Assembly: GCF_036417845.1 (NCBI RefSeq)
Contig: NC_090015.1
Location: 1-64,000, forward strand
Reading direction: 5' to 3'
Source of the DNA: Apteryx mantelli
Taxonomy: Eukaryota
Length of the DNA: 64,000 bases
The notes under the pieces were generated by a model. That model was given only the letters and a program-made list of their open reading frames with translations. It was not told the origin of the DNA and searched no databases. The position numbers and the translations under genes were made by a program. Shown here in pieces: positions 5,601 to 46,900 of this stretch. Each line of letters begins with the position of its first letter. Position 1 is the stretch's first letter.

Positions 5601-5650
5601 CACCTCCATCCCTGATGTCTCTCCATCCCTGATGTCCCCTCACGCCCGGT
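2640..5650. repeat. Minisatellite of about 24-27-bp units (ccctggtgtcccccatgtccctggtgtccctccatccgtggtgtcc), organised into 500-960-bp higher-order units that carry the exon-2 junction copies
   Basis: Direct reading. Many reciprocal-strand spurious ORFs (PWCPPCPWC / GHGGHQGWRDTRD). Confidence 0.9.
3080..5260 (+). other. Four truncated copies of the exon-2 junction (acceptor plus the first 50 nt of the exon beginning at 5663), embedded in the intronic repeat; copies begin at 3109, 3618, 4219 and 5176
   Basis: The string ccccggcag|gacgtgacgccgctgcaggtggtgctggccgacacggc(g/c)ctgcgtc recurs nearly identically. After ctgcgtc the copies diverge (ccctgctcc...) where the real exon continues tccgcgccctgctcgac. 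Confidence 0.85.
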
Positions 5651-5662
5651 GTCCCCCGGCAG

Positions 5663-5786
5663 GACGTGACGCCGCTGCAGGTGGTGCTGGCCGACACGGC
5701 GCTGCGTCTCCGCGCCCTGCTCGACTTCGTGGCCCGGGACGGCAGCCGCTTCGTGGCCGGTGATGAGTGGCTCTTCGAAGGTCCCG
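5663..5786 (+). CDS. MVP: MVP coding exon ([42 protein letters not shown]); AG 5661-5662, donor GT 5787-5788; 3' phase 1
   Basis: Near-identical to MVP '[22 protein letters not shown]...[12 protein letters not shown]'. The frame continues from the previous exon. Donor is gtacgc. Confidence 0.9.
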
Positions 5787-5872
5787 GTACGCGGCGGACG
5801 GGGGGGGGGGACGCGCCCCAGGGTGGGGGACACCACCCACCCCGGTGACACCGTGTCCCCGTCCCCGCCAAG

Positions 5873-6004
5873 GCACCTACATCCCCCGCAAGGAGGTGGA
5901 GGTGGCCGAGACGCTGCAGGCCACCGTCATCGGGCCCAACCAGGCCGTGCGGCTGCGGGCGCGCAAGGAGTGCGTCGACCGCGAGGGCGTCCGCCGCGTC
6001 ACAG
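5873..6004 (+). CDS. MVP: MVP coding exon ([45 protein letters not shown]); AG 5871-5872, donor GT 6005-6006; phase 1 at both ends
   Basis: Matches MVP '[44 protein letters not shown]'. A split Gly codon joins it to the previous exon across a short 86-bp intron. Confidence 0.9.
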
Positions 6005-7990
6005 GTGACCCCCCCTGGCACCCATGGGTGCTCCTGGGACCCTCCTGCACCCTTGGGAGCTCCTGGGACCCCCCAGCACCTGTGGGTGCTCCTGGGACCC
6101 TCCTGCACCCTTGGGAGCTCCTGGGACCCACCAACACCCATGGGAGCTCCTGGGAGCTTCTGGGACCCCTGGGACCCCCCAGCACCCATGGGAGCTCCTG
6201 GGATCCTCCTGCACCTGTGGGTGCTCCTGGGACCCCCCAGCACCCATGGGAGCTCCTGGGACCCTCCTGCACCCATGGGAGCTCCTGGGACCCTCCTGCA
6301 CCCATGGGAGCTCCTGGGAGCTTCTGGGACCCCTGGGACCCCCCAGCACCCATGGGAGCTCCTGGGATCCTCCTGCACCTGTGGGTGCTCCTGGGACCCC
6401 CCAGCACCCATGGGAGCTCCTGGGACCCTCCTGCACCCATGGGAGCTCCTGGGAGCTTCTGGGACCCCTGGGACCCCCCAGCACCCATGGGAGCTCCTGG
6501 GACCCTCCTGCACCTGTGGGTGCTCCTGGGAGCCTCCTGCACCCTTGGGAGCTCCTGGGACCCCCCTGCACCCTTGGAAGCCCCCCAGCACCCATGGGAG
6601 CTCCTGGGAGTTCTTGGGACCCCTGGGACCCTCCTGCACCCTTGGGAGCTCCTGGGACCCTCCTGCACCCATGGGAGCTCCTGGGAGCTTCTGGGACCCC
6701 TGGGACCCCCCAGCACCCATGGGAGCTCCTGGGATCCTCCTGCACCCGTGGGAGCTCCTGGGAGCTCTTGGGACCCCTGGGACCCCCCTGCACCCATGGG
6801 AGCTCTTGGGACCCCTGAGACCCCCCTGCACCCGTGGGTGCTCCTGGGATCCTCCTGCACCCCTGGGAGCTCCTGGGAGCTCTTGGGACCCCTGGGACCC
6901 TCCCTGCACCCATGGGAGCTCCTGGGATCCTCCTGCACCCATGGGAGCTCCTGGGAGCTCCTGGGACCCCTGGGACCCCCCTGCACCCATGGGAGCTCCT
7001 GGCACCCCCCAGCACCCATGGGAGCTCCTGGGATCCTCCTGCACCCTTGGGAGCTCCTGGGAGCTCTTGGGACCCCTGGGACCCTCCCTGCACCCATGGG
7101 AGCTCTTGGGACCCTCCTGCACCCTTGGGAGCTCCTGGGAGCTCTTGGGACCCCTGGGACCCCCCAGCACCCATGGGAGCTCCTGGGACCCTCCTGCACC
7201 CCTGGGAGCTCCTGGGAGCTCTTGAGACCCCTGGGACCCCCCAGCACCCATGGGAGCTCCTGGGACCCCCCTGCACCCATGGGAGCTCCTGGGACCCTCC
7301 TGCACCCCTGGGAGCTCTTGGGAGCTCTTGGGACTCCTGGGACCCTCCCTGCACCCATGGGAGCTCCTGGGATCCTCCTGTACCTTTGGGAGCTCCTGGG
7401 AGCTCTTGAGACCCCTGGGACCCCCCAGCACCCATGGGAGCTCCTGGGACCCCCCTGCACCCATGGGAGCTCCTAGGAGCTCTTGGGACCCCTGGGATCC
7501 TCCCTGCACCCTTGGGAGCTCCTGGGAGCTCCTGGGACCCCTGGGACCCTCCCTGCACCCATGGGAGCTCCTGGGATCCTCCTGCACCCTTGGGAGCTCC
7601 TGGGAGCTCTTGGGACCCCTGGGACCCTCCCTGCACCCATGGGAGCTCTTGGGACCCTCCTGCACCCTTGGGAGCTCCTGGGAGCTCTTGGGACCCCTGG
7701 GACCCCCCAGCACCCATGGGAGCTCCTGGGATCCTCCTGCACCCATGGGAGCTCCTGGGACCCCCCTGTGCCCATGGGACCCCCCCAGCACCCATGGGAG
7801 CCCCCATGGGACCCCCTGCACCTGTGGAAGCCCCCAGCACCCATGGGTGCTCCTGGGAGCCCGCTGCACCCCTGGGAGCTCCTGGGACCCCCCTGCACCC
7901 CTGGGAGGCCCCCAGCACCCCTGGGAGCCCCTGGGATCCCCCCCGCACCCTTGGGATCCCACGGCCCCCCCTAGCACCCCTGGGACCCTC
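6005..7990. repeat. Tandem repeat of about 30-60-bp units (ctcctgggaccctcctgcacccatgggagctcctgggagcttctgggacccctgggaccccccagcacccatgggag), starting at the exon-3 donor
   Basis: Direct reading. Confidence 0.9.
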
Positions 7991-9203: not shown

Positions 9204-9298
9204 GCGAGGAGTGGCTGGTGAAGCGGGTGGGCGCCTACCTGCCCGGCGTCTACGAGGAGGTCCTCGACGTGGTGGACGCCATCGTCCTCACCGAGAAG
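9204..9298 (+). CDS. MVP: MVP coding exon ([31 protein letters not shown]); AG 9202-9203, donor GT 9299-9300
   Basis: Matches MVP '[31 protein letters not shown]'. The phase is consistent with the neighbouring exons. Confidence 0.9.
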
Positions 9299-9398: not shown

Positions 9399-9635
9399 AA
9401 AGCCCTGCACCTTCGGGCGACGAGGACCTTCCGGGACGCCCAGGGCACGGTGCGACGCACGGGCGAGGAGTGGCTGGTGACGCAGGAGCAGAGCGACGCC
9501 TACGTCCCCGACGTCTTCGAGGAGGTGGTGGCCCAGGTGGCCGTCACCACCCTGGGGCCCCGCCAGTACTGCGTCGTCCTCGACCCCGTGGGGCCCGACG
9601 GCAAGCCCCAGCTGGGCCAGCAGCGCGTCGTCAAG
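9399..9635 (+). CDS. MVP: MVP coding exon ([79 protein letters not shown]); AG 9397-9398, donor GT 9636-9637
   Basis: Matches MVP '[28 protein letters not shown]...[30 protein letters not shown]'. It is separated from the previous exon by a 100-bp repeat-free intron. Confidence 0.9.
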
Positions 9636-9639
9636 GTGG

Positions 9640-11350
9640 GGGCCCCGACCCGTCAGTGGTGGGTGGGAGGTGGACCTCCGAGGAGGTGGCCGCAGGTGGC
9701 CCTGAGGGACCTCAACGGGCTCCTGAGGGATCAGGGTGGCACCGAGGGACCCTAAGGTGGCCCTGAAGGACCTCAACGGGCTCCTGAGGGGTCTGAGGAG
9801 GCCTCAAGGGATCTCAGTGGACCCCTAAGGTGGCCCTGAGGGACCTCAACGGGCTCCTGAGGGATCAGGGTGGCACCGAGGGACCCTAAGGTGGCCCTGA
9901 GGGAACTCATTGGGCTCCTGAAGGGTCTGAGGAGGCCTCAAGAGATCTCGATGGACCCCTAAGGTGGCCCCGAGGGGCTCAGGGTGGCTCCAAGGGACCC
10001 TAAGGTGGCCCTGAGGGATCTGAGGAGGCCTCAAGGGATCTGAGGAGGCCTCAAGGGATCTCAGTGGACCCCTAAGGTGGCCCTGAGGGACCTCAACGGG
10101 CTCCTGAGGGGTCAGGGTGGCACCGAGGGACCCTAAGGTGGCCCTGAGGGAACTCAACGGGCTCCTGAGGGGTCTGAGATGGCCCCAAGGGATCTGAGGA
10201 GGCCTCAAGGGATCTCGATGGACCCCTAAGGTGGCCCCGAGGGGCTCAGGGTGGCCCCGAGGGACCCTAAGGTGGCCCTGAGGGGTCTGAGGTGGCCCCG
10301 AGGGATCTGAGAAGGCCTCAAGGGATCTCAGTGGACCCCTAAGGTGGCCCTGAGGGACCTCAACGGGCTCCTGAGGGGTCAGGGTGGCACCAAGGGACCC
10401 TAAGGTGGCCCTGAGAGATCTGAGGAGGCCTCAAGGGATCTCAATGGACCCCTAAGGTGGTCCTGAGGGGTCAGGGTGGCACTGAGGGACCCTAAGGTGG
10501 CCCTGAGGGGTTTGAGGAGGCCTCAAGGGATCTCAGTGGATCCCTAAGGTGGCCCCGAGGGGCTCAGGGTGGCACTGAGGGACCCTAAGGTGGCCCTGAG
10601 AGATCTGAGGAGGACTCAGGGGATCTCGATGGACCCCTAAGGTGTCCCCACGGGGCTCAGGGTGGCTCCAAGGGACCCTAAGGTGGCCCTGAGGGGTCTG
10701 AGGTGGCCACAAGGGATTTGAGGAGGCCTCAAGGGATCTCAGTGGATCCCTAAGGTGGCCCCGAGGGGCTCAGGGTGGCACTGAGGGACCCTAAGGTGGC
10801 CCTGAGGGATCTGAGGAGGACTCAGGGGATCTCGATGGACCCCTAAGGTGGCCCTGAGGGGCTCAGGGTGGCTCCAAGGGACCCTAAGGTGGCCCTGAGG
10901 GGTCTGAGGTGGCCACAAGGGATTTGAGGAGGCCTCAAGGGATCTCGATGGACCCCTAAGGTGGCCCCAAGGGGCTCAGGGTGGCCCCAAGGGACCTAAG
11001 GTGGCCCTGAGGGATCTGAGGAGGCCTCAAGGGATCTCGATGGACCCCTAAGGTGGCCCCAAGGGGCTCAGGGTGGCACTGAGGGACCCTAAGGTGGCCT
11101 TGAGTGGGCTGAGGAGACCTCACAGGATCTCAGTGGATCCCTAAGGTGTCCCCACGGGGCTCAGGGTGGCCCTGAGGGACCCGAATGGACATCTAAGGTG
11201 GCCTCAAGGGACCCTTAAGTGGTCCAGAGGAGCTCAGGGTGGCCCAGACTGACCCCTAAGGTGGCCCCGAGGGGCTCAAGGTGGCCCCAAAGCTCCCTGA
11301 GGTGGCCTCAAGGAGGCCTGAGGGGGTCGCAAGGGACCCCACCGTGTCAG
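9640..11350. repeat. Tandem repeat of about 60-70-bp units (ccctaaggtggccctgagggacctcaacgggctcctgaggggtcagggtggcaccgagggac) with higher-order structure
   Basis: Direct reading. Confidence 0.85.
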
Positions 11351-12489: not shown

Positions 12490-12615
12490 GGCGAGAAGTC
12501 CTTCTTCCTGCGGCCGGGCGAGCGTCTCCAGGCCGGCATCCAGGACGTCTACGTGCTGGCCGAGGACGAGGGGCTGCTGCTCCAGGCCCTGCAGACCCTC
12601 ACCCACCCCGACGAG
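12490..12615 (+). CDS. MVP: MVP coding exon ([42 protein letters not shown]); AG 12488-12489, donor GT 12616-12617
   Basis: Matches MVP '[41 protein letters not shown]'. Confidence 0.88.
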
Positions 12616-14865: not shown

Positions 14866-15024
14866 GGCGGCGCGGAGGTGACGCGGCGGGCGGGCGAGCG
14901 CTGGCTGGCCCGCGGTCCCCTCGAGTACGTGCCGCCGGCCGAGGTGACCGTGCTGGAGCGACGCCGCGCCGTGGCCCTGGGCGAGGGCGAGGGCATCTAC
15001 GTGCGCGACATCCGCACCGGCAAG
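14866..15024 (+). CDS. MVP: MVP coding exon ([53 protein letters not shown]); AG 14864-14865, donor GT 15025-15026
   Basis: Matches MVP '...[47 protein letters not shown]'. Confidence 0.88.
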
Positions 15025-19303: not shown

Positions 19304-19569
19304 GTGCGGGCGGTGGTGGGCCAGACCTACATGCTGACGGCGACGGAGGAGCTGTGGGAGAAGGAGCTGGCGCCCGGCGTGGAGGCGCTGCTGGCGGCCG
19401 CCCGCGACCCCCGGGGCCAGCGCGGGGCCACCGCCGGGGACATCGGGGACGTCGGGGACGACGCCGGGGACACGGCGGGGCGGCGGCGCGACCGCACGCG
19501 GGCCGTCACCTTCCGCGTGCCCCACAACGCCGCCATGCAGCTCTACGACTACCGGGAGCGGCGGGCGCG
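19304..19569 (+). CDS. MVP: MVP coding exon ([88 protein letters not shown]+cg); AG 19302-19303, donor GT 19570-19571 (gtgagc); 3' phase 2
   Basis: Matches MVP '[30 protein letters not shown]...[25 protein letters not shown]'. It contains an in-frame GGGGAC(A/G)TC repeat (GDIGDVGDD) related to the downstream intronic satellite. Confidence 0.85.
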
Positions 19570-20949
19570 GTGAGCGGGGACGTTGGGGACATCGGGGACA
19601 TCGGGGAGGTTGGGGGCATCAGGGACATCTGGGACGTGGAGGACATCAGAGATGTTGGGGGTGTCAGGGATGTCGGGGACATTGGGGACATCAGGGATGT
19701 TGGGGACATCTGGGACATGGAGGACATCAGAGACGTTGGGGATGTTGGGGACGTCGGGGACATCGGGGGTGTTGGGGACGTCGGGGAGGTTGGGGGCGTC
19801 AGGGACATCTGGGACCTGGAGGACATCAGAGACGTTGGGAATATTGGGGATGTTGGGGACATCTGGGACGTGGAGGACATCAGGGACGTTGGGGATGTTG
19901 GGGACGTTGGGATGTCGGGGACATTGGGGACATCTGGGACGTGGAGGACATCAGGGACGGGGACGTTGGGGACCTCAGGGACATCTGGGACCTGGAGGAC
20001 ATCAGAGACGTTGGGGATGTTGGGGATGTTGGGGGCGTTGGGGACATCTGGGACATAGAGGACATCAGAGACGTTGGGGATGTTGGGGACATTGGGGACA
20101 TGGAGGACATCAGAGATGGGGATGTTGGGGACATTGGGGACATCTGGGACATGGAGGACATCAGGGACATTGGGGATGTTGGGGGCTTTGGGGATATGGA
20201 GGACATCAGAGACGTTGGGGATGTTGGGGATGTGGGGGACATCTGGGACCTGGAGGACATCAGAGACGTTGGGGATGTTGGGAGCATTGGGGACATGGAG
20301 GACATCAGAGATGGGGATGTTGGGGACATTGGGGACATCTGGGACATGGAGGACATCAGGGACATTGGGGATGTTGGGGACATTAAGGGGCATCAGGGAC
20401 ATCAGGGACTTGGAGGACATCAGAGACGTTGGGGACGTTGGGGGCGTCAGGGACGTCGGGGACATGGAGGACATCAGGGACTTTGGGGTTGTTGGGGACA
20501 TCAGGGACGTTGGGGACATCTGGGACACGGAGGACATCAGAGATGGGGACATTGGGGATGTCAGGGACATTGGGGACATCTGGGACACAGAGGACATCAG
20601 GGACGTTGGGGGACGTTGGGGGCGTCAGGGACATCTGGGACATGGAGGACATCAGAGACGGGGATGGTGGGGACGTTGGGGATGTTGGAGACATCTGGGA
20701 CATGGATGGCATCAGAGACAGGGACATTGGGGACATCTGGGACATGGAGGACATCTGAGACGTTGGGGATGTTGGGGACATCAGGGACATTGGGGATGTT
20801 GGGGACGTTGAGGACATCGGGGACATCAGGGACATCTGGGACATGGAGGACATCAGGGACATTGGGGCTGTCGGGGATGTTGGGGACGTTGGGGGTGTTG
20901 GGGACATGTGGGACATGGAGGACATCAGAGATGGGGATGGCGGGGACGT

Positions 20950-21080
20950 TGGGGACGCCGTTGGGGACACGGGGGACGCGGCGGGGCGGCGGCGCGACCG
21001 CACGCGGGCCGTCACCTTCCGCGTGCCCCACAACGCCGCCATGCAGCTCTACGACTACCGGGAGCGGCGGGCGCGGTGAG
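20950..21080 (+). other. Copy of the exon-8 3' end plus donor (…[35 protein letters not shown]|gtgagcgggg), inside the intron-8 satellite
   Basis: About 125 nt identical to 19445-19575, including the gtgagc donor, but lacking the 5' two-thirds of the exon. Confidence 0.85.
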
Positions 21081-23444: not shown

Positions 23445-23575
23445 GGGACGCCGTTGGGGACACGGGGGACGCGGCGGGGCGGCGGCGCAACCGCACGCGG
23501 GCCGTCACCTTCCGCGTGCCCCACAACGCCGCCATGCAGCTCTACGACTACCGGGAGCGGCAGGCGCGGTGAGCG
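23445..23575 (+). other. Second copy of the exon-8 3' end plus donor, carrying two substitutions (D>N and R>Q)
   Basis: Same 125-nt block with cgcaaccgc and cggcaggcgcgg variants. The donor gtgagc lies at 23569. Confidence 0.85.
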
Positions 23576-24399: not shown

Positions 24400-27300
24400 G
24401 CTGGTGCCACCGGGGGGGGGGGCACGTGTGTGGGTGCGTGTGACCTGCGTGTGGGTGCGTGTGGGGGCACGTGACACCCACGTGACACCCGTGTGGGTGC
24501 GTGTGACACACATGTAGGTGCGTGTGACCTGCGTGTGGGTGCGTGTGACACCCGTGTTGGTGCGCGTGACGTGTGTGGGTGCCTATAACACACGTGTGGG
24601 TGCGTGACATTGCGTGTGGGTGCGTGTGACGTGTGTGGGTGCGTGTGACCCACGTGTGGGTGCATGTGGGTGCGTGTGGGGGGGCGTGACACCTGTGTGA
24701 CACCCGTGTGGGCGCGTGTGACCCGTGTGTGGGTCTGTGTGGGTGCGTGTGACACCCGTGTGGGTGCGTGTGGGTGTGTGTGACCCACATGTGGGTGTGT
24801 GCGACCTGTGTGTGGGTGCGTGTGGCCCGCGTGTGGGCCCGTGTGACACCCGTGGGTGCGTGTGACACGCATGTGGATGCGTGTAGGTGCGTGTGACCCA
24901 CGTGTGGGGGCATGTGGGGGTGCGTGACACCTGTGTGACACCCGTGTGGGTGCGTGTGACACACGTGTGGGTGCGTGTGACACATGTGGGTGCGTGTGAC
25001 CCATGTGTGTGTGCGTGTGACACACGTGGGTGCGTGTGAAATGCATGTGGCTGCGTGTGACCCACGTGTGGGTGTGTGTGACACACGTGTGGGTGCGTGT
25101 GGGTGCGTGTGACACCCATGTGGGTGCGTGTGACCTGCGTGTGGGTGCATGTGACCCACGTGTGGGTGCGTGTGACACGTGTGGGTGCGTGTGGGTGCAT
25201 GTGACACCCATGTGGGTGCGTGTGACCCGTGTGTGGGCCTGTGTGACCACTGTGGGTGCGTGTGACACACGTGTGGGTGCGTGTGACGTGGGAGTGGGTG
25301 CGTGTGACCTGCGTGTGGGTGCGTGTGACCCACGTGTGGGTGTGTGTGACCCACATGTGGCTGCATGTGACACCCGTGTGGGTGTGTGTGACCCACGTGT
25401 GGGGGCATGTGACCCACGTGTGGGGGCGTGTGGGGGCGCATGACACCTGTGTGACACCCGTGTGGGTGTGTGTGACCTGTGTGTGGGTGCGTGTGGGTGC
25501 GTGTGACACGTGTGGGTGTGTGTGACACCCGTGTGGGTGCGTGTGACCTGCGTGTGGGTGGGTGGGACACACGTGCGGGTGCGTGTAAAATGCGTGTGGG
25601 TGCGTGTGACACACATGTGGGGGTGTGTGACACGTGTGTGGGTGCGTGTGGGTGCGTGTGACACCTATGTGGGTGCATGTGACCTGCGTGTGGGTGCGTG
25701 TGACACGTGTGTGGGTGTGTGTGGGTGCGTGGGACCCGCATGTGGGTGCGTGTGACCTGCGTGTGGGCCTGTGTGACCCCCGTGGGCGCGTGTAACACGC
25801 GTGTGGGTGCGTGTAACACGTGTGTGGGTGCGTGTGACCTGCGTGTGGGCCCATGTGACCCCTGTGGACGCGTGTAACACACGTGTGGGTGCGTGTGGGT
25901 GTGTGTGACCCACGTGTGGGTGCGTGTGACCTGCGTGTGGGCCTGTGTGACCCCCGTGGGTGTGTGCAACATGCGTGTGGGGGCGTGTGACCCACGTGTG
26001 GGGGCGTGTGGGGGCGCATGACACCTGTGTGACACCCGTGTGGGTGCGTGTGACCTGTGTGTGGGTGCGTGTGGGTGTGTGTGACACGTGTGGGTGTGCG
26101 TGACCCACGTGTGGGTGTGTGTGACCTGCGTGTGGGTGGGTGGGACACACGTGGGTGCGTGTAAAATGCGTGTGGGTGCGTGTGACCCGCGTGTGGGTGT
26201 GTGACACGTGTGTGGGTGCGTGTGGGTGCGTGTGACACCCATGTGGGTGCGTGTGACCTGCGTGTGGGTGCATGTGACCCGCGTGTGGGTGCGTGTGACC
26301 TGCGTGTGGGCCCGTGTGACCCCCGTGGGTGCGTGTAACACGCGTGTGGGTGCGTGTGGGTGCGGGTGACCCACGTGTGGGTGCGTGTGACCTGCGTGTG
26401 GGCCTGTGTGACCCCCGTGGGTGGGTGCAACACGCGTGTGGGTGCGTGTGATGCGCGTGTGGCTGCGTGTGACCCCTGTGTGGCTGCGTGTGGGGACGCG
26501 TGACACCCGTGGGACCCCCGTGGGGTGACCCCCGTGTCCCCCGTGTCCCCACGCAGGGTGGTGCTGGGCCCCGAGCTGGCGCTGCTGGCGCCCGGCGAGC
26601 AGCCCACGGCGCCGTCCCTCTCCGGGGGGGGACACGTGTGACCCCCGCGTGGGTGCGTGTGACACCTGTGGGGTGACACGTCACGCGTGTGGGTGCGTGT
26701 GACATGTGTATGGGTGCGTGGGAGACGTGTGGGTGCGTGTGACCCGTATGTGGGTGTGGGTGACCTGCGTGTGGGTCCATGTGACACACACGTGGGTGCG
26801 TGTGACATGCGTGTGGGTGCGTGTGACGTGGGAGTGGGTGCGTGTGACCTGCGTGTGGGTGCGTGTGACCCACGTGTGGGGGTGTGTGGGGGCGCATGAC
26901 ACCTGTGTGACACCCGTGTGGGTGCGTGTGACCTGCGTGTGGGTGCGTGTGGGTGTGTGTGACACGTGTGGGTGTGCGTGACCCACGTGTGGGTGTGTGT
27001 GACCTGCGTGTGGGTGGGTGGGACACACGTGCGGGTGCGTGTGAAATGCGTGTGGGTGCGTGTGACCCACATGTGGGGGTGTGTGACGCGTGTGTGGGTG
27101 CGTGTGGGTGCGTGTGACACCTATGTGGGTGCATGTGACCTGCGTGTGGGGGCGTGTGACCCGCGTGTGGGTGCGTGACATGTGTGTGGGTGTGTGTGGG
27201 TGCGTGGGACCCGCGTGTGGGTGCGTGTGACCTGCGTGTGGGCCTGTGTGACCCCCGTGGGTGCGTGTAACACGCGTGTGGGTGCGTGTAACACGTGTGT

Positions 27301-28160
27301 GGGTGCGTGTGACCTGCGTGTGGGCCCGTGTGACCCCCGTGGGCGCGTGTAACACACGTGTGGGTGCGTGTGGGTGCGTGTGACCCATGTGTGGGTGCGT
27401 GTGACCGGCGCGTGGGTGCGTGTGGGTGCGTGTGACGTGGGTGTGGGTGCGTGTGGGTGCATGTGACATGCATGTGGGTGCGCGTGACCCCCGTGGGGTG
27501 ACCCCCGTGTCCCCCCCACCCACGCAAGGTGGTGCTGGGCCCCGAGCTGGCGCTGCTGGCGCCCGGCGAGCAGCCCACGGCGCCGTCCCTCTCCGGGGTG
27601 GGACGCGTGTGACCCCCGTGGGGACCCGCGTGGGTGCGTGTGACCCCCGTGGGGTGACCCCCGTGTCCCCCCCACCCACGCAGGGTGGTGCTGGGCCCCG
27701 AGCTGGCGCTGCTGGCGCCCGGCGAGCAGCCCACGGTGCTGTCCCTCTCCGGGGGGGGACGCGTGTGACCCCCGCGTGGGTGCGTGTGGGTGCGTGTGAC
27801 CCCCGTGGGGATGCGTGTGACCCCCGTGGGGTGACCCCCGTGTCCCCCGTGTCCCCACGCAGGGTGGTGCTGGGCCCCGAGCTGGCGCTGCTGGCGCCCG
27901 GCGAGCAGCCCACGGCGCCGTCCCTCTCCGGGGTGGGACACGTGTGACCCCCGTGGGGACCCGCGTGGGTGCGTGTGACCCCCGTGGGGTGACCCCCGTG
28001 TCCCCCGTGTCCCCACGCAGGGTGGTGCTGGGCCCCGAGCTGGCGCTGCTGGCGCCCGGCGAGCAGCCCACGGCGCCGTCCCTCTCCGGGGGGGGACGCG
28101 TGTGACCCCCGCGTGGGTGCGTGTGACCCCCGTGGGGTGACCCCCGTGTCCCCCGTGTCC
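24400..28160. repeat. GT-rich repeat of 9-30-bp units (gtgtgggtgcgtgtgacccacgtgtgggtgcgtgtgac), carrying the exon-9 junction copies near its 3' end
   Basis: Direct reading. The alternating purine-pyrimidine GT/GC character is evident. Confidence 0.9.
26530..28100 (+). other. Five truncated copies of the exon-9 acceptor plus its 5' 80 nt, starting at 26556, 27529, 27684, 27863 and 28021; they lie upstream of the real exon at 28169
   Basis: The string ccccacgcag|ggtggtgctgggccccgagctggcgctgctggcgcccggcgagcagcccacgg(c/t)gc(c/t)gtccctctccgggg recurs, with each copy diverging after ctctccgggg. The second copy has caag in place of cag. Confidence 0.85.
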
Positions 28161-28168
28161 CCACGCAG

Positions 28169-28366
28169 GGTGGTGCTGGGCCCCGAGCTGGCGCTGCTGG
28201 CGCCCGGCGAGCAGCCCACGGTGCTGTCCCTCTCCGGGGGACGCCCCAAGCGTCCCCACGCCCGCCGCGCCCTCTGCCTGCTGCTGGGCCCCGACTTCTG
28301 CGCCGACCTCGTGGCCATCGAGACCGCCGACCACGCCCGCCTCCAGCTCCAGCTCGCCTACAACTG
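28169..28366 (+). CDS. MVP: MVP coding exon ([68 protein letters not shown]); AG 28167-28168, donor GT 28367-28368; phase 2 at both ends
   Basis: Almost identical to MVP '[66 protein letters not shown]'. It is the last and only complete copy in a series of five upstream truncated copies. Confidence 0.88.
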
Positions 28367-29700: not shown

Positions 29701-29839
29701 GCACTTCGAGGTGCCGGAGGCGCCGGAGGAGCTGGGCCGCCTCTTCAGCGTCCCCGACTTCGTGGGTGACGCCTGCAAGGCCCTGGCGTCCCGCGTGCGC
29801 GGCGCCGTCGCCGCCGTCTCCTTCGACGACTTCCACAAG
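29701..29839 (+). CDS. MVP: MVP coding exon ([47 protein letters not shown]); AG 29699-29700, donor GT 29840-29841
   Basis: Matches MVP '[48 protein letters not shown]'. The Trp codon is split with the previous exon. Confidence 0.88.
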
Positions 29840-29859
29840 GTGACGTCGTGTCCCGTCAC

Positions 29860-31640
29860 CGTGTGTCACCGCGCGTCACCCCGTGTCACCCCCCCGGGGC
29901 CTCCCGCCTCCTCCCGGCCGCGGCGCGGCACGGCCGCGGGTCTCCGCGTCGTCTCCCGGCGCCCCGTGTCACCCCCAGGTCATCCCGTCTCGCCCTCAGG
30001 TCATCACATGTCATCACCAGGTCATCCCGTGTCATCACTAGGTCATCCCGTGTCACCCCCAGGTCAACCCATGTCGTCACTAGGTCATCCCGTGTCACCC
30101 CTAGGTCAACACGTGTCACCCCTAGGTCATCCCATGTCATTGCCAGGTCATCCCGTGTCGCCCTCAGGTCATCATGTGTCATCACCAGGTCATCCCGTGT
30201 CATCACTAGGTCATCCCGTGTCACCCCTAGGTCAACCCGTGTCACCCCCAGGTCAACCCATGTCGTCACTAGGTCATTCCGTGTCACCCCTAGGTCAACA
30301 CGTGTCACCCCTAGGTCATCCCATGTCATTGCCAGGTCATCCCGTGTCCCCCCTAGGTCAACCTGTGTCACCCTCAGGTCAACCCGTGTCACCCCCAGGT
30401 CATCCCATGTCACCCCCATGTCATCCCATGTCATTGCCAGATCATCCCGTGTCACCCCCAGGTCATCCCGTGTCATTGCCAGGTCATCCCATGTCACCCT
30501 TAGGTCAACCCATGTCACCCTCAGGTCATCCCATGTCATCGCTAGGTCATCCCATGTCACCCCTAGGTCAACCTGTGTCACCCCCAGGTCATCCCAAGTC
30601 ATCGCTAGGTCATCCCATGTCATTGCCAGGTCATCCCGTGTCACCCCTAGGTCAACCCGTGTCACCCCCAGGTCATCCCACATCATCCCCAGGTCGTCCC
30701 CTGTCATTGCCAGGTCATCTCCTGGCACCCCATATCACCCCCAGGTCATCCCGTGTCACCGCTAGGTCATCCCGTGTCACCCCTGGGTCATCCCGTGTCA
30801 TCGCTAGGTCATCCCATGCCACCTCCAGATCATCCCGTGTCATCACCAGGTCATCTGGCACCTCCTGTCATTGCCAGGTCCTCCCATGTCATTGCCAGGT
30901 CATCCCCTGTCACCCCCGGGTCATCCCATGTCACCCCCAGGTTGCCCTGCGTCATTCCGTGTCGCTGCACGTCATCCCGTGTCATCCCCGGGTGTCCCCG
31001 CGTCACCCAACATTATTCCGCTGTCATCCTGTGTCACCACATGTCATCCCGTGTCACCACATGTCATCGCCGTGTCCCCTTGTGTCACCCCATGTCACCC
31101 CATGTTGTCCTGGGTCATCCCTGGGTCAACCCGTGTCACCCGGGGTTACTCTGTGTCACCTCAAGTCATCCCCATGTCATCCTGTGTCATCCCCATGTCA
31201 CTCCATGTCCCCCATGACATCCCTGTGTTGTCCCATGTCACCCCATGTCACTGCACGTCACCCTGTGTCAACCCCGTGTGTCCTCATGTCATCCCGTGTC
31301 AGCCTTGAGTCATCTTTTGTCACCCCATGTCATCGCGTGTCCACATTATGTCACCATATGTCATCCAGGTCACCCCATGTCCTGTGTCACTGTGTGTCAC
31401 GCCTGTGTCACCCCCCGTGTCCCCACGTCACCCCCACGACGCCTTGTGCCAGCCCGTGTCGTTCCTGCGTGTCCCCGTGTTGCTCCTTGTCCCCTTGTCC
31501 CCACCATGTCCCCGCTGTCCCAATGGCCTTGTGTCCCCTGGTGTCCCTGTGTCCCCAATGTGCCCTAATGTCCGTGGTGTCCCCAGTGCCCCCAACATCT
31601 CCAATGTCCCTGCTGTCCCCTAACTTCCCTGGTGTCCCCT
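29860..31640. repeat. Minisatellite of 21-bp units (ccaggtcatcccgtgtcaccc), grown from the exon-10 donor-proximal sequence gtgacgtcgtgtcccgtcacc
   Basis: Direct reading. The ORF 29848..30765 periodicity reads RSSRVTP. Confidence 0.9.
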
Positions 31641-33150
31641 AATGTCCCCAGAGCTCGAACCCCGTGATCTGCCCGGCCCTGTTCAGCTTCAGCGAGGCCC
31701 CATGTCCCCAATGTCCCCAATGTCCCCGACGTCCCCAATGTCCCTGATGTCCCCAATGCCCCCAATATCTCCAATGTCCCCGATGTCCCCAATGTCCCTG
31801 ATGTCCCTGATGTCCCCAATGTCCCCGACGTCCCCATCGTCCCTGATGTCCCCAATGCCCCCAATATCTCCAATGTCCCCGATGTCCCCAATGTCCCTGA
31901 TGTCCCTGATGTCCCCAACGTCCCTGATGTCCCCAATGCCCCCAATATCTCCAATGTCCCCGATGTCCCCAATGTCCCTGATGTCCCCGATGTCCCCAGA
32001 ACTCCAACCGGGTGATCTGCTCGGCCGTGTTCGGCTTCAACGAGGCCCCATGTCCCTAATGTCCCGTAATGTCCCCAATGCCCCGTAATGTCCCCGATGT
32101 CCCCAACATCCTCAATGTCCCCAATGTCCCCAACGTCCCCGATGTCCCCGACGTCCCCGCCGTCCCCAGAACTCCAACCGGGTGATCTGCTCGGCCGTGT
32201 TCGGCTTCGATGAGGCCCCGTGTCCATAATGTCCCGTAATGTCCCCAATGTCCCCAACATCCTCAATGTCCCCAATGTCCCCGATGTCCCTGATGTCCCT
32301 GACGTCCCCGCCGTCCCCAGAACTCCAACCGGGTGATCTGCTCGGCCACGTTCGGCTTCGACGAGGCCCCGTGTCCATAATGTCCCGTAATGTCCCCAAT
32401 GTCCCCAAGGTCCCCGACATCCCCAATGTCCCCGATGTCCTGACATCCCCGATGTCCCCAATGTCCCCGATGTCCCCAGAACTCCAACTGGGTGATCTGC
32501 TCGGCTGTGTTCGGCTTCGATGAGGCCCCGTGTCCCTAATGTCCTGTAATGTCCCCGATGTCCCAACGTCCCCAACGTCCCCAATGTCCTCAATGTCCCC
32601 AACATCCCTGATGTCCCCAACGTCCCTGATGTCCCCAGAACTCCAACCGGGTGATCTGCTCAGCCGTGTTCGGCTTCGACGAGGCCCCGTGTCCATAATG
32701 TCCCATGATGTCCCCAACATCCCTGATGGCCCTGATGTCCCCGACGTCCCTGATGTCCCCGATGTCCCTGATGTCCCCAACGTCCCTGCTGTCCCCAGAA
32801 CTCCAACCGGGTGATCTGCTCGGCCGTGTTCGGCTTCAACGAGGCCCCGTGTCCCTAATGTCCCATGATGTCCCCGATGTCCCCAACGTCCCTGATGTCC
32901 CCGATGTCCCCGACGTCCCCAACGTCCCCAGAACTCCAACCGGGTGATCTGCTCGGCCGTGTTCGGCTTCGACAAGACCCTATGTCCCTAATGTCCCGTA
33001 ATGTCCCCGATGTCCCGTAATGTCCCTGCTGTCCCCAACATCCTCAATGTCCCCAACGTCTCCGATGTCCCCGACATCCCTGATGTCCCCGATGTCCCCA
33101 GAACTCCAACCGGGTGATCTGCTCGGCCGTGTTCGGCTTCGACGAGGCCC
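31640..33150 (+). other. Nine copies of the exon-11 acceptor plus its 5' 50 nt (ccccag|aactccaaccgggtgatctgctcggccgtgttcggcttcgacgag), starting at 31652 (degenerate), 32000, 32170, 32321, 32480, 32639, 32799, 32932 and 33102
   Basis: Near-identical strings recur every 133-170 bp inside a higher-order repeat of 15-21-bp 'gatgtcccc' units. The copies continue gccccgtgtcc, whereas the real exon at 33253 continues ggcggccgcctgcgc. Confidence 0.85.
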
Positions 33151-33252
33151 CGTGTCCCTAATGTCCCGTAATGTCCCCAATGTCCCCAACGTCCCCGATG
33201 TCCCCGATGTCCCTGACGTCCCCGATGTCCCCAATGTCCCCGATGTCCCCAG

Positions 33253-33465
33253 AACTCCCAACCGGGTGATCTGCTCGGCCGTGTTCGGCTTCGACGAGGG
33301 CGGCCGCCTGCGCGAGCGCCTCCGCTTCGCCCCCAACGGCCTGGTGGTCACCAGCGTGGACATCCAGAGCGTGGAGCCCGTGGACCAGCGGACGCGCGAC
33401 GCCCTGCAGCGCAGCGTCCAGCTCGCCATCGAGATCGCCACCAACTCCCAGGAGGCCACCGCCAG
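33253..33465 (+). CDS. MVP: MVP coding exon ([70 protein letters not shown]-ag); AG 33251-33252, donor GT 33466-33467. Apparent +1 frameshift in a C-run near 33257-33259
   Basis: Matches MVP 'NSARIIRMAVFGFE...[47 protein letters not shown]'. The nine upstream truncated copies read aactccaaccgg in frame, whereas this copy reads aactcccaaccgg. Confidence 0.7.
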
Positions 33466-36236: not shown

Positions 36237-36353
36237 GCAGGAAGCAGAGCGCCTGGCGCAGGAGGCCCGGGGTCGCCTCGAGCGGCAGCGGCTGCTCGAC
36301 CAGGCCGAGGCCGAACGGGCGCGTCGGGCCCTGCTCGAGCTCGAGGCCCTCAG
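36237..36353 (+). CDS. MVP: MVP coding exon (g-[38 protein letters not shown]-ag); AG 36235-36236, donor GT 36354-36355 (gtgagc)
   Basis: Matches MVP '[39 protein letters not shown]'. Confidence 0.88.
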
Positions 36354-37311: not shown

Positions 37312-37438
37312 CGCGGCGGTGGAGAGCACGGGGGCGGCGCGGGCGGAGGCGCAGGCCCGGGCGGAGGCCGCCCGCATCGAGGGCGAAGCCGCCATCCTGC
37401 AGGCCAAGCTCAAGGCCGAGGCCGCCGCCATCGAGGCG
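37312..37438 (+). CDS. MVP: MVP coding exon (c-[42 protein letters not shown]); AG 37310-37311, donor GT 37439-37440
   Basis: Matches MVP '[42 protein letters not shown]'. Confidence 0.88.
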
Positions 37439-38612: not shown

Positions 38613-38802
38613 GAGGCGGAGCTGGCGCGGCTGGAGCGCGCGCAGGCGCAGGAGCTGCGGGTGCGGCGGGCGCGGGCGGAGGCGGAGGCGGCGCACGCGC
38701 AGGCCATGGCCGAGGTGGAGGGGGGGGCGCGTGCGCGACGTGGCCGCCGCCCTCGGCCCTGACGTCATCCGCGACATCGCGCGCGCCGGGCCCGAGCTCC
38801 AG
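38613..38802 (+). CDS. MVP: MVP coding exon (EAELARLERAQAQELRVRRARAEAEAAHAQAMAEVEGG[fs]RVRDVAAALGPDVIRDIARAGPELQ); AG 38611-38612, donor GT 38803-38804. Apparent +1 frameshift in the G7 run at 38721-38727
   Basis: Matches MVP '[63 protein letters not shown]'. The upstream frame (phase from 38613) and the downstream frame (from 38731) differ by one nucleotide across a 7-G run. Confidence 0.7.
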
Positions 38803-39428: not shown

Positions 39429-39566
39429 GTGAAGCTGCTGCAGGGCCTGGGGCTGCAGTCGACGCTCATCACCGACGGCGCCGCCCCCCTCAACCTCTTC
39501 GCCACCGCCCGGGGGCTCCTGGGGCTGGCCCCGCCCCCCGACCCCGCCCCCGGACACGCCCCCTGA
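39429..39566 (+). CDS. MVP: MVP terminal coding exon ([45 protein letters not shown]); AG 39427-39428; stop TGA 39564-39566
   Basis: Matches MVP C-terminus '[43 protein letters not shown]'. The frame matches ORF 39381..39566. Confidence 0.9.
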
Positions 39567-40399: not shown

Positions 40400-41900
40400 G
40401 GGAGCCGGGGGGGGGGGCTGCTACGGTCCTGGGGACAACCAAGGAGGGGGGGGGGCTGGGTGTCCTGGGGGCACCCATGGGTGCTCCTGGGGGGGGTCCC
40501 CACCCCTAGGATGGGTGCTGGACACCCTGAAGACATCTAAGGTGGCTTCTAGGGGGTGGTCACCACCCCTAGGACACCCCGGGGTGGGTGCTGGACACCC
40601 TGAAGACATCTAAGGTGGCTTCTGGGGGGTGGTCACCACCACTAGGACACCCTGGGGTGGGTGCTGGGTGCCCTAGGGGCACCCGTGGGGGCTCCTGGGA
40701 GATGGTCACCACCCCAGGACGCTACAAGGTGGGTCCTAAGTACGCTGGGGGCACCCAAGGGTGCTCCTGGGGGATGGGCAACATCTTGAGGGCGCCCAAG
40801 GGTGCTCGTAGGAGACGCCCACCACCCTGAGAACAAGCAGATGTGCTCCTGGGAGGCCCTGGAGACACCTAAAGGTGCTTCTAGGAGACGGCCACCACCC
40901 TGGTGACACCCAAGGGTGCTCCTAGGAGACGACCACCACCCTGAGAACACCCAAAAGTGCTTCTAGGAGATGACTACCACCCTCGTGACACCCAAGGGTG
41001 CTCCTAGAAGATGGCCACCACCTTGAGAACACCCAAGGGTGCTCCCGGGAGATGGTCTTCACCCTTGTGACACCCAAGGGTGCTCCTAGAAGATGGCCAC
41101 CACCCTGAGGACACCCAAGGGTGCTCCTAGGAGATGGCCACCACCTTGAGAACACCCAAGGGTGCTCCCAGGAGACAACCACCACCCTGGTGACACCCAA
41201 GGGTGCTCCTAAAAGATGGCCACCACCCTGAGGACACCCAAGGGCGCTCCCAGGAGATGGCCACCACTCTGAGAACACCCAAGGGTGCTCCCAGGAGATG
41301 GCCACCACCCTGGTGACACCCAACAGTGCTCCTATGAGACGACCACCACCCTGGTGACACCCAAGGGTGCTCCTAAAAGATGGCCACCACCCTGATGACA
41401 CCCAGAGGAGCTCCTAGAAGATGGCCACCACCCTGAGAACACCCAAAAGTGCTTCTAGGAGATGACCACCACCCTGGTGACACCCCAGGGTGCTCCTATG
41501 AGATAACCACCACTCTGGTGACACCCCAGGGTGCTCCTAAGAGACGACCACCACCCTGGTGACACCCCAGGGTGCTCCTATGAGATAACTACCACTCTGG
41601 TGACACCCAAGGGTGCTCCTAGGAGATGGCCACCACTCTGGTGACACCCAAGGGTGCTCCTAAGAGACAACCACCACCCTGGTGACACCCCAGGGTGCTC
41701 CTAGGAGATGGCCACCACTCTGGTGACACCCAAGGGTGCTCCTAGGAGATGGCCACCACTCTGGTGACACCCAAGGGTGCTCCTAAGAGACAACCATCAC
41801 CCTGGTGACACCCAAGGGTGCTCCTAGGAGATGGCCACCACTCTGGTGACACCCAAGGGTGCTCCTATGAGATACCCACCACCCTGGTGACACCCCCATG
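40400..41900. repeat. Satellite of about 42-bp units (gtgacacccaagggtgctcctaggagatggccaccaccctg) repeated about 35 times, within the presumed TLCD3B 3'UTR
   Basis: Direct reading. Confidence 0.9.
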
Positions 41901-43039: not shown

Positions 43040-43760
43040 CACGAGGGGGGACACGGGGGGACACGGGGGGGGACACGGGTCACACGGGGGGGGGACACGG
43101 ACACAGGTCACAAGGGGGAACAGGAGGACATGGGTCACATGACGTGGAGGACACCACCAGGACGTGGGGTGGCCTACCCGGGTTGCCCCCATCCCCACGG
43201 TGTCCCCAAGGTGTCCCCAACCCCCTCCCAACTCACGGAGGCCACAGGGAAGCAGAGCAGCACCGTGGTGGCCACCTCCTTGCCATGGTGGTGGCCTCCC
43301 ATCCCGTGTTCCCCAAGAGGTTCCTCCATCCCCGAGCCATCTCTGTCCCCATGGTGTCCCCAGCTGCTGTCCCCACTCGATGGGGAAGCAGACGAGGACC
43401 ATGGTGGCCACCACGAGCCCATCCTCGCCGACGTGGTGGCCACCCATCCCGTGTCTCCAAGAGGTTCCTCCGTCTCCAAGCCATGCTGGTGCCCCCAGGG
43501 TGTCCCCAACCCCCGTCCCCACTCATGGTGACCACGAGGACGCAGACGAGCACCACGGTGGCCACCACGAGAACGTCCCCGCCGAGGTGGTGGCCCCCCA
43601 ACGCCACGTCCCCAAGAAGGTTCCTCCGCCCCCCCCAAGCCCCGTCCCCACGGGGAAGCAGACGAGCACCACGGCGGCCACCACGAGACCATCCCCGCCA
43701 CGGTGGTGGCCCTCCATGCCACGTCCCCAAGAAGGTTCCTCCATCCCCGTCCCCTACTCA
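43040..43760. repeat. Tandem repeat of about 130-150-bp units derived from the TLCD3B exon end and donor
   Basis: See the TLCD3B copy feature above. Recurrent strings are gaagcagacgagcaccacgg(c/t)ggccaccacgag. Confidence 0.75.
43225..43700 (-). other. Four degenerate copies of the TLCD3B exon 3' end plus donor (…LVCFPVAA|gtgagt), in the adjacent intron at plus 43225-43290, 43355-43420, 43510-43580 and 43625-43700
   Basis: Minus-strand strings such as ctgctctgcttccctgtggcctccgtgagttgg, ctgcgtcctcgtggtcaccatgagtgggg and ctcgtctgcttccccgtggggacgg recur at a period of about 130-150 bp. Confidence 0.7.
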
Positions 43761-43761
43761 C

Positions 43762-43981
43762 GGCGGCCACGGGGAAGCAGACGAGCACCATGGCGGCGTG
43801 GTGGAGCACCATGAGCAGGTCCTTGCGGAGGTAGGCGGCGGCGGCGGCCCGCAGCGACGGCGGTGGCCCGGCCTCGTGGCCCTTGACGCGTCCCCGGTGC
43901 CAGTGGCAGAGGAACATGGCGTAGACGTCGTAGACGAAGTAGGGCACCGCGAACTCCGGGTAGGCGCCCGCCAGCCAGTGC
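43762..43981 (-). CDS. TLCD3B: TLCD3B coding exon (g-HWLAGAYPEFAVPYFVYDVYAMFLCHWHRGRVKGHEAGPPPSLRAAAAAYLRKDLLMVLHHAAMVLVCFPVAA); minus-strand donor gtgagt. The 5' (acceptor) boundary is uncertain
   Basis: Aligns to FAM57B 'QHWLSSAYTQFAVPYFIYDIYAMFLCHWH...YLHKEFLMVLHHAAMVLVCFP'. The conserved HH motif of the TLC domain is present. The open frame continues upstream into the 58-bp satellite, so I inferred the acceptor at 'acag|g' (plus 43981-43983). Confidence 0.65.
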
Positions 43982-43989
43982 CTGTCCCC

Positions 43990-46900
43990 AAAAATGACGT
44001 CAGGGGACCCAGGCGTCCGGGAGGGACCCAGGCGTCCGGGCAGGGACCCGGGTGTCCAGGGGACCCGGGTGTTTGGTGGCCTCGTGGCCACCATCTCCCC
44101 TGGTTTCACTCTACATCTGGGTCATCTTCAAGGGACCCAGGCGTCCGGGGAGACTCGTGTCACCTCTAGAGGGACCAGGCGTCCGGGAGGGGCCCAGGCG
44201 TCCGGGGAGTCTCGCGTCACCTCTAGGGGGACCCGGGCGTCCGGGAGGGGCCCAGGCGTCCGGGGAGTCTCGCGTCACCTCTAGGGGGACCCGGGCGTCC
44301 GGGAGGGGCCCAGGCGTCCGGGGAGCCTCGCGTCACCTCTAGGGGACCCGGGCGTCCGGGAGGGGCCCAGGCGTCCGGGGAGTCTCGCGTCACCTCTAGG
44401 GGGACCCGGGCGTCCGGGAGGGGCCCAGGCGTCCGGGGAGTCTCGCGTCACCTCCAGGGGGACCCGGGCGTCCGGGAGGGGCCCAGGCGTCCGGGGAGCC
44501 TCGCATCACCTCTAGGGGGACCCGGGCGTCCGGGAGGGGCCCAGGCGTCCGGGGAGTCTCGCGTCACCTCTAGAGGGACCCGGGCGTCCGGGAGGGGCCC
44601 AGGCGTCCGGGGAGTCTCGCGTCACCTCTAGAGGGACCCGGGCGTCCGGGAGGGGCCCAGGCGTCCGGGGAGTCTCGCGTCACCTCTAGGGGCACCCGGG
44701 CGTCCGGGAGGGGCCCAGGCGTCCGGGGAGTCTCGCGTCACCTCTAGGGGGACCCGGGCGTCCGGGAGGGGCCCAGGCGTCCGGGGAGTCTCGCGTCGCC
44801 TCTAGGGGGACCCGGGCGTCCGGGAGGGGCCCAGGCGTCCGGGGAGTCTCGCGTCACCTCTAGGGGGACCCGGGCGTCCGGGAGGGGCCCAGGCGTCCGG
44901 GGAGTCTCGCGTCACCTCTAGGGGGACCCGGGCGTCCGGGAGGGGCCCAGGCGTCCGGGGAGTCTCGCGTCACCTCTAGGGGGACCCGGGCGTGCTGGAG
45001 GGGCCCAGGCGTCCGGGGAGTCTCGCGTCGCCTCTAGGGGGACCCGGGCGTCCGGGAGGGGCCCAGGCGTCCGGGGAGTCTCGCGTCGCCTCTAGGGGGA
45101 CCCGGGCGTCCGGGAGGGGCCCAGGCGTCCGGGGAGCCTCGCGTCACCTCTAGGGGGACCCGGGCGTCCGGGAGGGGCCCAGGCGTCCGGGGAGCCTCGT
45201 GTCACCTCTAGGGGGGCCCGGGCGTCCGGGAGGGGCCCAGGCGTCCGGGGAGTCTCGCGTCACCTCTAGGGGGACCCGGGCGTCCGGGAGGGGCCCAGGC
45301 GTCCGGGGAGTCTCCTGTCACCTCTAGGGGCACCCGGGCGTCCGGGAGGGGCCCAGGCGTCCGGGGAGTCTCGCGTCACCTCTAGGGGACCCGGGCGTGC
45401 GGGAGGGGCCCAGGCGTCCGGGGAGTCTCGCGTCACCTCTAGGGGGACCCGGGCGTCCGGGAGGGGCCCAGGCGTCCGGGGAGCCTCGCGTCACCTCTAG
45501 GGGGACCCGGGCGTCCGGGAGGGGCCCAGGCGTCCGGGGAGTCTCGCGTCACCTCTAGAGGGACCCGGGCGTCCGGGAGGGGCCCAGGCGTCCGGGGAGC
45601 CTCGCGTCACCTCTAGAGGGACCCGGGCGTCCGGGAGGGGCCCAGGCGTCCGGGGAGTCTCGCGTCACCTCTAGGGGGACCCGGGCGTCCGGGAGGGGCC
45701 CAGGCGTCCGGGGAGTCTCGCGTCACCTCTAGGGGGACCCGGGCGTCCGGGAGGGGCCCAGGCGTCCGGGGAGTCTCGCGTCGCCTCTAGGGGGACCCGG
45801 GCGTCCGGGAGGGGCCCAGGCGTCCGGGGAGTCTCGCGTCACCTCTAGGGGGACCCGGGCGTCCGGGAGGGGCCCAGGCGTCCGGGGAGTCTCGCGTCAC
45901 CTCTAGGAGACCCGGGCGTCCGGGAGGGGCCCAGGCGTCCGGGGAGTCTCGCGTCACCTCTAGGGGGACCCGGGCGTCCGGGAGGGGCCCAGGCGTCCGA
46001 GGAGTCTGGCGTCACCTCTAGGGGGACCCGGGCGTCCGGGAGGGGCCCAGGCGTCCGGGGAGTCTCGCGTCACCTCTAGGGGGACCCGGGCGTCCGGGAG
46101 GGGCCCAGGCGTCCGGGGAGTCTCGCGTCACCTCTAGGGGGACCCGGGCGTCCGGGAGGGGCCCAGGCGTCCGGGGAGTCTCGCGTCACCTCTAGGGGGA
46201 CCCGGGCGTCCGGGAGGGGCCCAGGCGTCCGGGGAGTCTCGCGTCACCTCTAGAGGGACCCAGGTGTCCGGGAGGGGCCCAGGCGTCCGGGGAGTCTCGC
46301 GTCGCCTCTAGGGGGACCCGGGCGTCCGGGAGGGGCCCAGGCGTCCGGGGAGTCTCGCGTCACCTCTAGGGGGACCCGGGCGTCCGGGAGGGGCCCAGGC
46401 GTCCGAGGAGTCTGGCGTCACCTCTAGGGGGACCCGGGCGTCCGGGAGGGGCCCAGGCGTCCGGGGAGTCTCGCGTCACCTCTAGGGGGACCCGGGCGTC
46501 CGGGAGGGGCCCAGGCGTCCGGGGAGTCTCGCGTCACCTCTAGGAGACCCGGGCGTCCGGGAGGGGCCCAGGCGTCCGGGGAGTCTCGCGTCACCTCTAG
46601 AGGGACCCAGGCGTGCGGGAGGGGCCCAGGCGTCCGGGGAGTCTCGCGTCACCTCTAGAGGGACCCAGGCGTGCGGGAGGGGCCCAGGCGTCCGGGGAGT
46701 CTCGCGTCACCTCTAGGGGGACCCGGGCGTCCGGGAGGGGCCCAGGCGTCCGGGGAGTCTCGCGTCACCTCTAGGGGGACCCAGGTGTCCGAGAGGGGCC
46801 CAGGCGTCCGGGGAGTCTCGCGTCACCTTTACGGGGACCCAGGAGTCCGGGAGGGGCCCAGGCGTCCGGGGAGTCTCGCGTCGCCTCTAGGGGGACCCGG

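Follow-up and report, generated by a model that had tools for sequence, protein, structure and literature searches.

Two one-base frameshifts in the assembled major vault protein gene of Apteryx mantelli: probable homopolymer-length errors in a repeat-rich locus

Palaeognath MVP and the kiwi gene model

The closest described counterparts of the gene analysed here are the MVP orthologues of other palaeognaths (emu P0242, Struthio camelus P0243, Rhea pennata P0257 and the A. rowi fragment XP_025923713.1), which show about 91-99% protein identity, share the exon structure and the FDDFHK| junction with kiwi and, unlike the kiwi assembly, carry a frameshift at neither of the two sites considered below; the emu protein P0242 bears no low-quality flag. 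Consensus indel errors in long-read assemblies are known to yield frameshifted gene models, and the low-quality label of Gnomon marks exactly such indels (10.1101/2021.07.16.452324). The kiwi case resembles known homopolymer errors in that a single base of a C/G run is changed in a conserved coding sequence, in a GC-rich and repeat-dense region and with a second case in the same gene, and differs from them in that a C3 run is shorter than those usually miscalled. As in unitary pseudogenes, two frame-disrupting indels are present in the raw kiwi MVP, which, in contrast to such pseudogenes, keeps its splice sites, has no stop codon and shows no raised dN/dS, and whose lesion is not found in the sister species.

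The window, i.e., the whole stretch of 64,000 nucleotides that was analysed, comes from the North Island brown kiwi, Apteryx mantelli, and contains most of its major vault protein (MVP) gene. The part of the gene inside the window (909-39566, forward strand) comprises 15 exons, with an AATAAA signal 3' of the stop codon. A human MVP probe was used in tblastn solely to locate the exons, and every junction was then read. Besides exons J, K and N, described in the next section, they are A (909-1131), B (5663-5786), C (5873-6004), D (9204-9298), E (9399-9635), F (12490-12615), G (14866-15024), H (19304-19569), I (28169-28366), L (36237-36353), M (37312-37438) and O (39429-39566, including the TGA stop), all on the forward strand. 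All 14 introns are bounded by GT and AG, and the phases are consistent except at the J-K junction and at a break within exon N; no stop codons, splice-site losses or other indels were found across the 15 exons. Exon K, which the initial annotation had numbered exon 11, is indeed the 11th MVP exon within the window, which is preceded by at least one more coding exon. The first coding exon of MVP is absent from positions 1-908, which open within a minisatellite of CTCTATAGGGTGC-type units belonging to an intron; this fits the RefSeq protein, which is 'partial' at the N-terminal end.

That RefSeq protein, XP_067171000.1 ('LOW QUALITY PROTEIN: major vault protein, partial [Apteryx mantelli]', 826 aa, 638-kb contig), agrees with the raw coding sequence up to residue 568 only. 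Once one C (33257) and one G (38720) are removed, the translation equals XP_067171000.1 exactly, plus a stop codon, with no sequence difference and with the same first residue (LVLGP...), encoded by the window's first exon. The window is the A. mantelli assembly annotated by RefSeq, and the RefSeq model already contains both one-base repairs; an exact look-up of XP_067171000.1 on the contigs gave no match, as expected of a product edited relative to the genome. The entry sits in the 90% cluster of the A. rowi MVP protein, and the corrected junction peptide matches 'major vault protein, partial [Apteryx rowi]' at 99% identity. Pfam recognised Vault (four stretches, 219 bits), Vault_2, Vault_3, Vault_4 and MVP_shoulder (residues 494-610) in the corrected protein, and in a phmmer search against PDB residues 3-820 aligned to human MVP 45-857 with 1158 bits. 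Over 99% of the query, corrected kiwi MVP is 92% identical to that of emu and 91% identical to that of ostrich; the exon order of the emu locus is collinear with kiwi MVP, as expected of bird MVP orthologues.

The extra C of exon K and the extra G of exon N

Exon J, the tenth in the window (29701-29839, forward strand), corresponds to residues 521-566 of P0121 and encodes 46 residues plus (W), ending in phase 0 with TTC CAC AAG|gtgacg (peptide ...FDDFHK). Exon K (33253-33465, forward strand) is present in one complete copy, whose assembled length is 213 nt versus 212 nt expected and which ends with CAG|gtcccg at 33465. By direct reading, positions 33245-33271 are gtccccag|AACTCCCAACCGGGTGATC, the exon start being ccccag|AACTCCCAACCGG at 33253, and a C3 run occupies 33257-33259 on the forward strand, where A. 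rowi and eight decoy copies have C2 and emu has CG. Exon J ends at 29839 in phase 0, and exon K is therefore thrown out of frame by +1. Both the surplus base in the only complete exon copy and the frame break across this boundary, as claimed by the initial annotation, are thus confirmed. The 13-mer AACTCCCAACCGG occurs in the window once, at 33253-33265, the CCC-containing k-mer AGAACTCCCAACCGG is likewise unique, and unique sequence follows 3' of the run (GACGAGGGCGG and GACGAGGGCGGCC, the latter at least 50 nt downstream). A transcript with CCC would have the J-K junction TTCCACAAG|AACTCCCAACC, and the MVP frame opens one base 3' of the frame read from the AG acceptor of exon K; the first frameshifted position is equivalent to human N594/S595, within the shoulder domain. 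Minus one C, the exon encodes MVP sequence up to ...NSQEATA(R).

Intron J-K (29840-33252, forward strand) consists nearly entirely of minisatellites, namely 21-nt CCCGTGTCACCCCCAGGTCAT units, then 9-nt CCCCAATGT units and then a tandem repeat of ~151-170 nt, which spans 31892-33299. The intron contains nine decoy acceptors in tandem (31646-33146, forward strand), each a partial copy that comprises the 3' splice site and the first ~50 nt of exon K; they start at 31646, 31994, 32164, 32315, 32474, 32633, 32793, 32926 and 33096. A search with the 47-nt acceptor plus exon start, allowing at most three mismatches, retrieved eight of these upstream copies, the ninth being the degenerate one at 31646. 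The C2 form, the 12-mer AACTCCAACCGG, has seven exact matches (32000, 32170, 32321, 32639, 32799, 32932 and 33102) versus 0 expected by chance; the eighth copy reads AACTCCAACTGG at 32480 and the degenerate ninth AGCTCGAACCCCG at 31652. The initial annotation had counted nine upstream copies with one common reading: the count was right and all nine are free of the extra C, but aactccaaccgg is found exactly in only seven of them. When the real exon was aligned with its nine copies and with its A. rowi and emu counterparts (12 sequences in all), the extra C appeared only in the real exon of the window. The motif CTCCAAC is shared by eight of the nine decoys, while the oldest (copy 1) retains the emu-like CTCGAAC, so the exon K start may first have been duplicated before TCG changed to TCC in kiwi.

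Contig PTFB01002646.1 of Apteryx rowi, from an independent assembly (GCA_003343035.1, locus L001), also carries the two exons of this junction together with the tandem array; in it exon K starts with ccccag|AACTCCAACCGG, has C2 and is otherwise identical at 212 of 212 positions. The earlier remark that the remaining ~200 nt of the exon are conserved is accordingly correct with respect to A. rowi, but does not extend to the upstream copies, which share the first ~50 nt only. The unique intron differs between the A. mantelli window and A. rowi by ~2%, therefore these are different species, and no other 1-bp indels were found between them in ~1.8 kb of it. Emu (Dromaius novaehollandiae, locus L003) has ccccag|AACTCGAACCGG at the start of exon K. 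Residues K566, N567, S568 and R570 do not vary among the aligned MVP proteins of kiwi, emu, ostrich, rhea, ptarmigan and human.

A second +1 frameshift, absent from the initial annotation, lies in exon N, the penultimate coding exon (38613-38802, forward strand), where a G8 run occupies 38720-38727 on the same strand and the frame switches from ...AMAEVEGG to RVRDVAAALGP.... Removal of one G restores AEVEGGRVRDVAAALGP, which is identical to emu in the protein alignment. Emu has G7 in frame at this site, and the tinamou Eudromia elegans (GCA_047922985.1, locus L002) has GGGGCGG (GAGGGGCGGCGCGTG). The tinamou locus informs the G-run site only, with exons D-I and K-M absent and 200 Ns present; its MVP model P0197 (314 aa; 10480-11360 of L002) jumps from exon C to exon N, and the locus is probably collapsed in this assembly.

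Consensus error, loss of function or frame rescue

What is observed is that the extra bases are present in the assembly and absent from the relatives, and that their removal gives a complete conserved MVP. On sequence comparison we put at about 0.78 the probability that C3 and G8 are two homopolymer-length consensus errors in a GC-rich, minisatellite-rich locus, so that the extra bases would be artefacts rather than real alleles. The true run at 33257-33259 would then be C2, C3 being a length miscount of the consensus, the G8 of exon N would be a second error of like kind, for G7, and the living gene would be intact, with ...FDDFHK|NSNRVICS... spliced in phase 0 as in other birds. The initial annotation likewise preferred a homopolymer-length error to a disabling mutation; the evidence that could be tested agrees with this preference and supports it, short of proof.

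Both lesions are +1 changes in C/G homopolymers, and the remaining exons and junctions are clean. The locus has ~69-69.5% GC and no Ns and is dense in C4/G4-rich minisatellites; the C3 site adjoins a G-quadruplex-prone (GGGGAYRTY)n minisatellite and the tandem decoy exon starts. Gaps or missing parts at this locus in the assemblies of A. rowi and tinamou show that it is hard to sequence. The features expected of a consensus error were found, i.e., a one-base change in a homopolymer, its absence from the paralogous copies and from relatives (these being other species, not the assembled individual), and no other decay. The low-quality label of RefSeq is not independent evidence, because it is based on protein alignment and not on reads, and it is silent on whether the genome base is wrong. 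Protein searches for a kiwi transcript, Logan or transcriptome ORF over exon K or N returned none, the only kiwi sequences retrieved being the genomic fragment of A. rowi and the RefSeq model of A. mantelli.

Some observations speak against an artefact. The C3 run is short for a homopolymer miscall, and in ~15 kb of 58-bp satellite a homopolymer is lengthened by one base in only 2 of ~260 units; the assembly otherwise having few 1-bp indels, two errors in a 2.5-kb coding sequence would require a locally raised error. The satellite and the A. rowi intron alignments were used for this comparison instead of neighbouring genes, which have no usable power as an error-rate control because only a TLC-domain fragment, the 41-nt repeat and the 20-kb satellite lie downstream of MVP. 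Furthermore, reads mis-mapped from the eight C2 decoys would push polishing towards C2, not C3, so a surviving C3 is not predicted by mis-mapping.

The rarity of 1-bp indels elsewhere in the assembly and this direction of the polishing bias both favour the view that the frameshifts are real and mark a very recent MVP loss-of-function allele or young pseudogene, either in A. mantelli or in the sequenced individual, which we consider unlikely. By this account slippage insertions turned C2 into C3 and G7 into G8, and the protein is truncated inside the shoulder domain, with loss of the cap-helix and cap-ring regions required for vault assembly. The extra bases do stand in the deposited consensus, and there are two disabling lesions within one gene. 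Loss of MVP would be tolerable, given that mice lacking Mvp are viable and that several eukaryotic lineages have lost their vaults; A. rowi and emu being different species, their intact state is compatible with a young mutation specific to A. mantelli.

Against a real allele stand, first of all, the estimates of constraint, obtained by the Nei-Gojobori method for the corrected kiwi coding sequence versus emu. The dN/dS was 0.27 for exons A-J (545 codons), 0.124 for exons K-O (256 codons) and 0.054 for exon K, i.e., the part downstream of the shift is at least as constrained as the part upstream, with no decay. Since constraint is kept downstream, the frameshift, if real, would be evolutionarily very young; relaxed constraint downstream of the lesion was not found versus emu, a result that a very young lesion would also fit. 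Apart from the extra C, exon K equals that of A. rowi although the introns are ~2% different, and the lesion is not shared with relatives, A. rowi being intact at the first site. Emu, ostrich and many Neoaves have an intact MVP, the 15 exons are otherwise undamaged, and two independent frameshifts accompanied by no other decay are improbable under neutral decay. The prior for consensus error in GC-rich avian genes is, moreover, much higher.

A third reading, in which CCC is real and the frame is rescued by an alternative donor GAC|gtcgtg, situated 5 nt 3' of the normal one (exon J end at 29844), or by ribosomal or transcriptional slippage, appears extremely improbable. The GT at 29845-29846 does stand in the restoring phase and forms the sole in-phase GT/AG combination near either splice site, but GAC|gtcgtg has almost nothing in common with the donor consensus MAG|GTRAGT, and the normal donor AAG|GTGACG is retained. 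Its use would insert V-T-T-P in place of the invariant N-S, no in-phase alternative acceptor exists around 33245-33265, and a slippery or stimulatory motif is absent. The relatives with C2 use the ordinary phase, and the G8 frameshift in exon N would be left unrepaired. The survey of alternative in-phase splice sites yielded this one weak donor (29844/29845) only, and it was rejected.

Exon-edge repeats and significance

In four MVP introns of kiwi, an exon edge and its splice site form part of a tandem repeat, which gives arrays of decoy splice sites beside the real ones. In addition to the exon K array, these are four copies of the 5' part of exon B (3107-5217), two extra copies of the 3' end of exon H (20993-21076 and 23486-23569), whose peptide begins R(D/N) and ends (R/Q)AR, and five copies of the 5' part of exon I (26555-28093). 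Like exon-edge repeats are present in the MVP introns of emu and tinamou, partly at different exons: emu L003 has ~17 copies of the 3' end of exon A with its donor (4201-6605) and two partial copies of the 5' end of exon K (26879-27014), and tinamou L002 has at least five copies of the acceptor plus the start of exon J (10500-11010).

Repeats also reach into the coding sequence. The 9-nt GGGGAYRTY, found in intron J-K in reverse complement as the GATGTCCCC units, forms a minisatellite inside coding exon H (19430-19480, 16 residues) that continues in the intron at 19575-19900, and exon A has a 14-residue insertion absent from emu, ostrich and human; the repeats of exons A and H are in-frame minisatellite expansions in coding sequence. 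Just 3' of the MVP polyadenylation signal stands a 41-nt tandem repeat of 28 copies (40745-41895), and from 44131 to the window end at 64000 there extends a GC-rich satellite of ~20 kb with 58-nt units (AGGGGCCCAGGCGTCCGGGGAGTCTCGCGTCACCTCTAGGGGGACCCGGGCGTCCGGG), higher-order periods of 116 and 174 nt and blocks that are 82-97% alike. Between them, an open frame on the minus strand (43177-44121) has a weak match to the TLC domain (PF03798, E 4.5e-6, profile positions 36-95) and is probably one exon of an opposite-strand TLC-domain gene, the rest of which was not found.

The extra C is most likely an ordinary matter of assembly quality, already flagged and repaired in the NCBI RefSeq annotation, and of little biological importance. 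If it is an artefact, the A. mantelli locus needs read-level correction at two positions, and gene models should take the repaired coding sequence; short-read polishing at the start of exon K is confounded by the eight near-identical decoy copies. If the extra C were real, it would represent a natural knockout of MVP, and hence of the vault, in a bird, which would be moderately interesting because the function of vaults is still unclear; that both +1 insertions are real and constitute a very young MVP null allele in kiwi or in the sequenced bird, a natural vertebrate vault knockout, strikes us as distinctly unlikely. The more interesting biology lies in the surrounding exon-edge repeats of the kiwi, emu and tinamou MVP introns.
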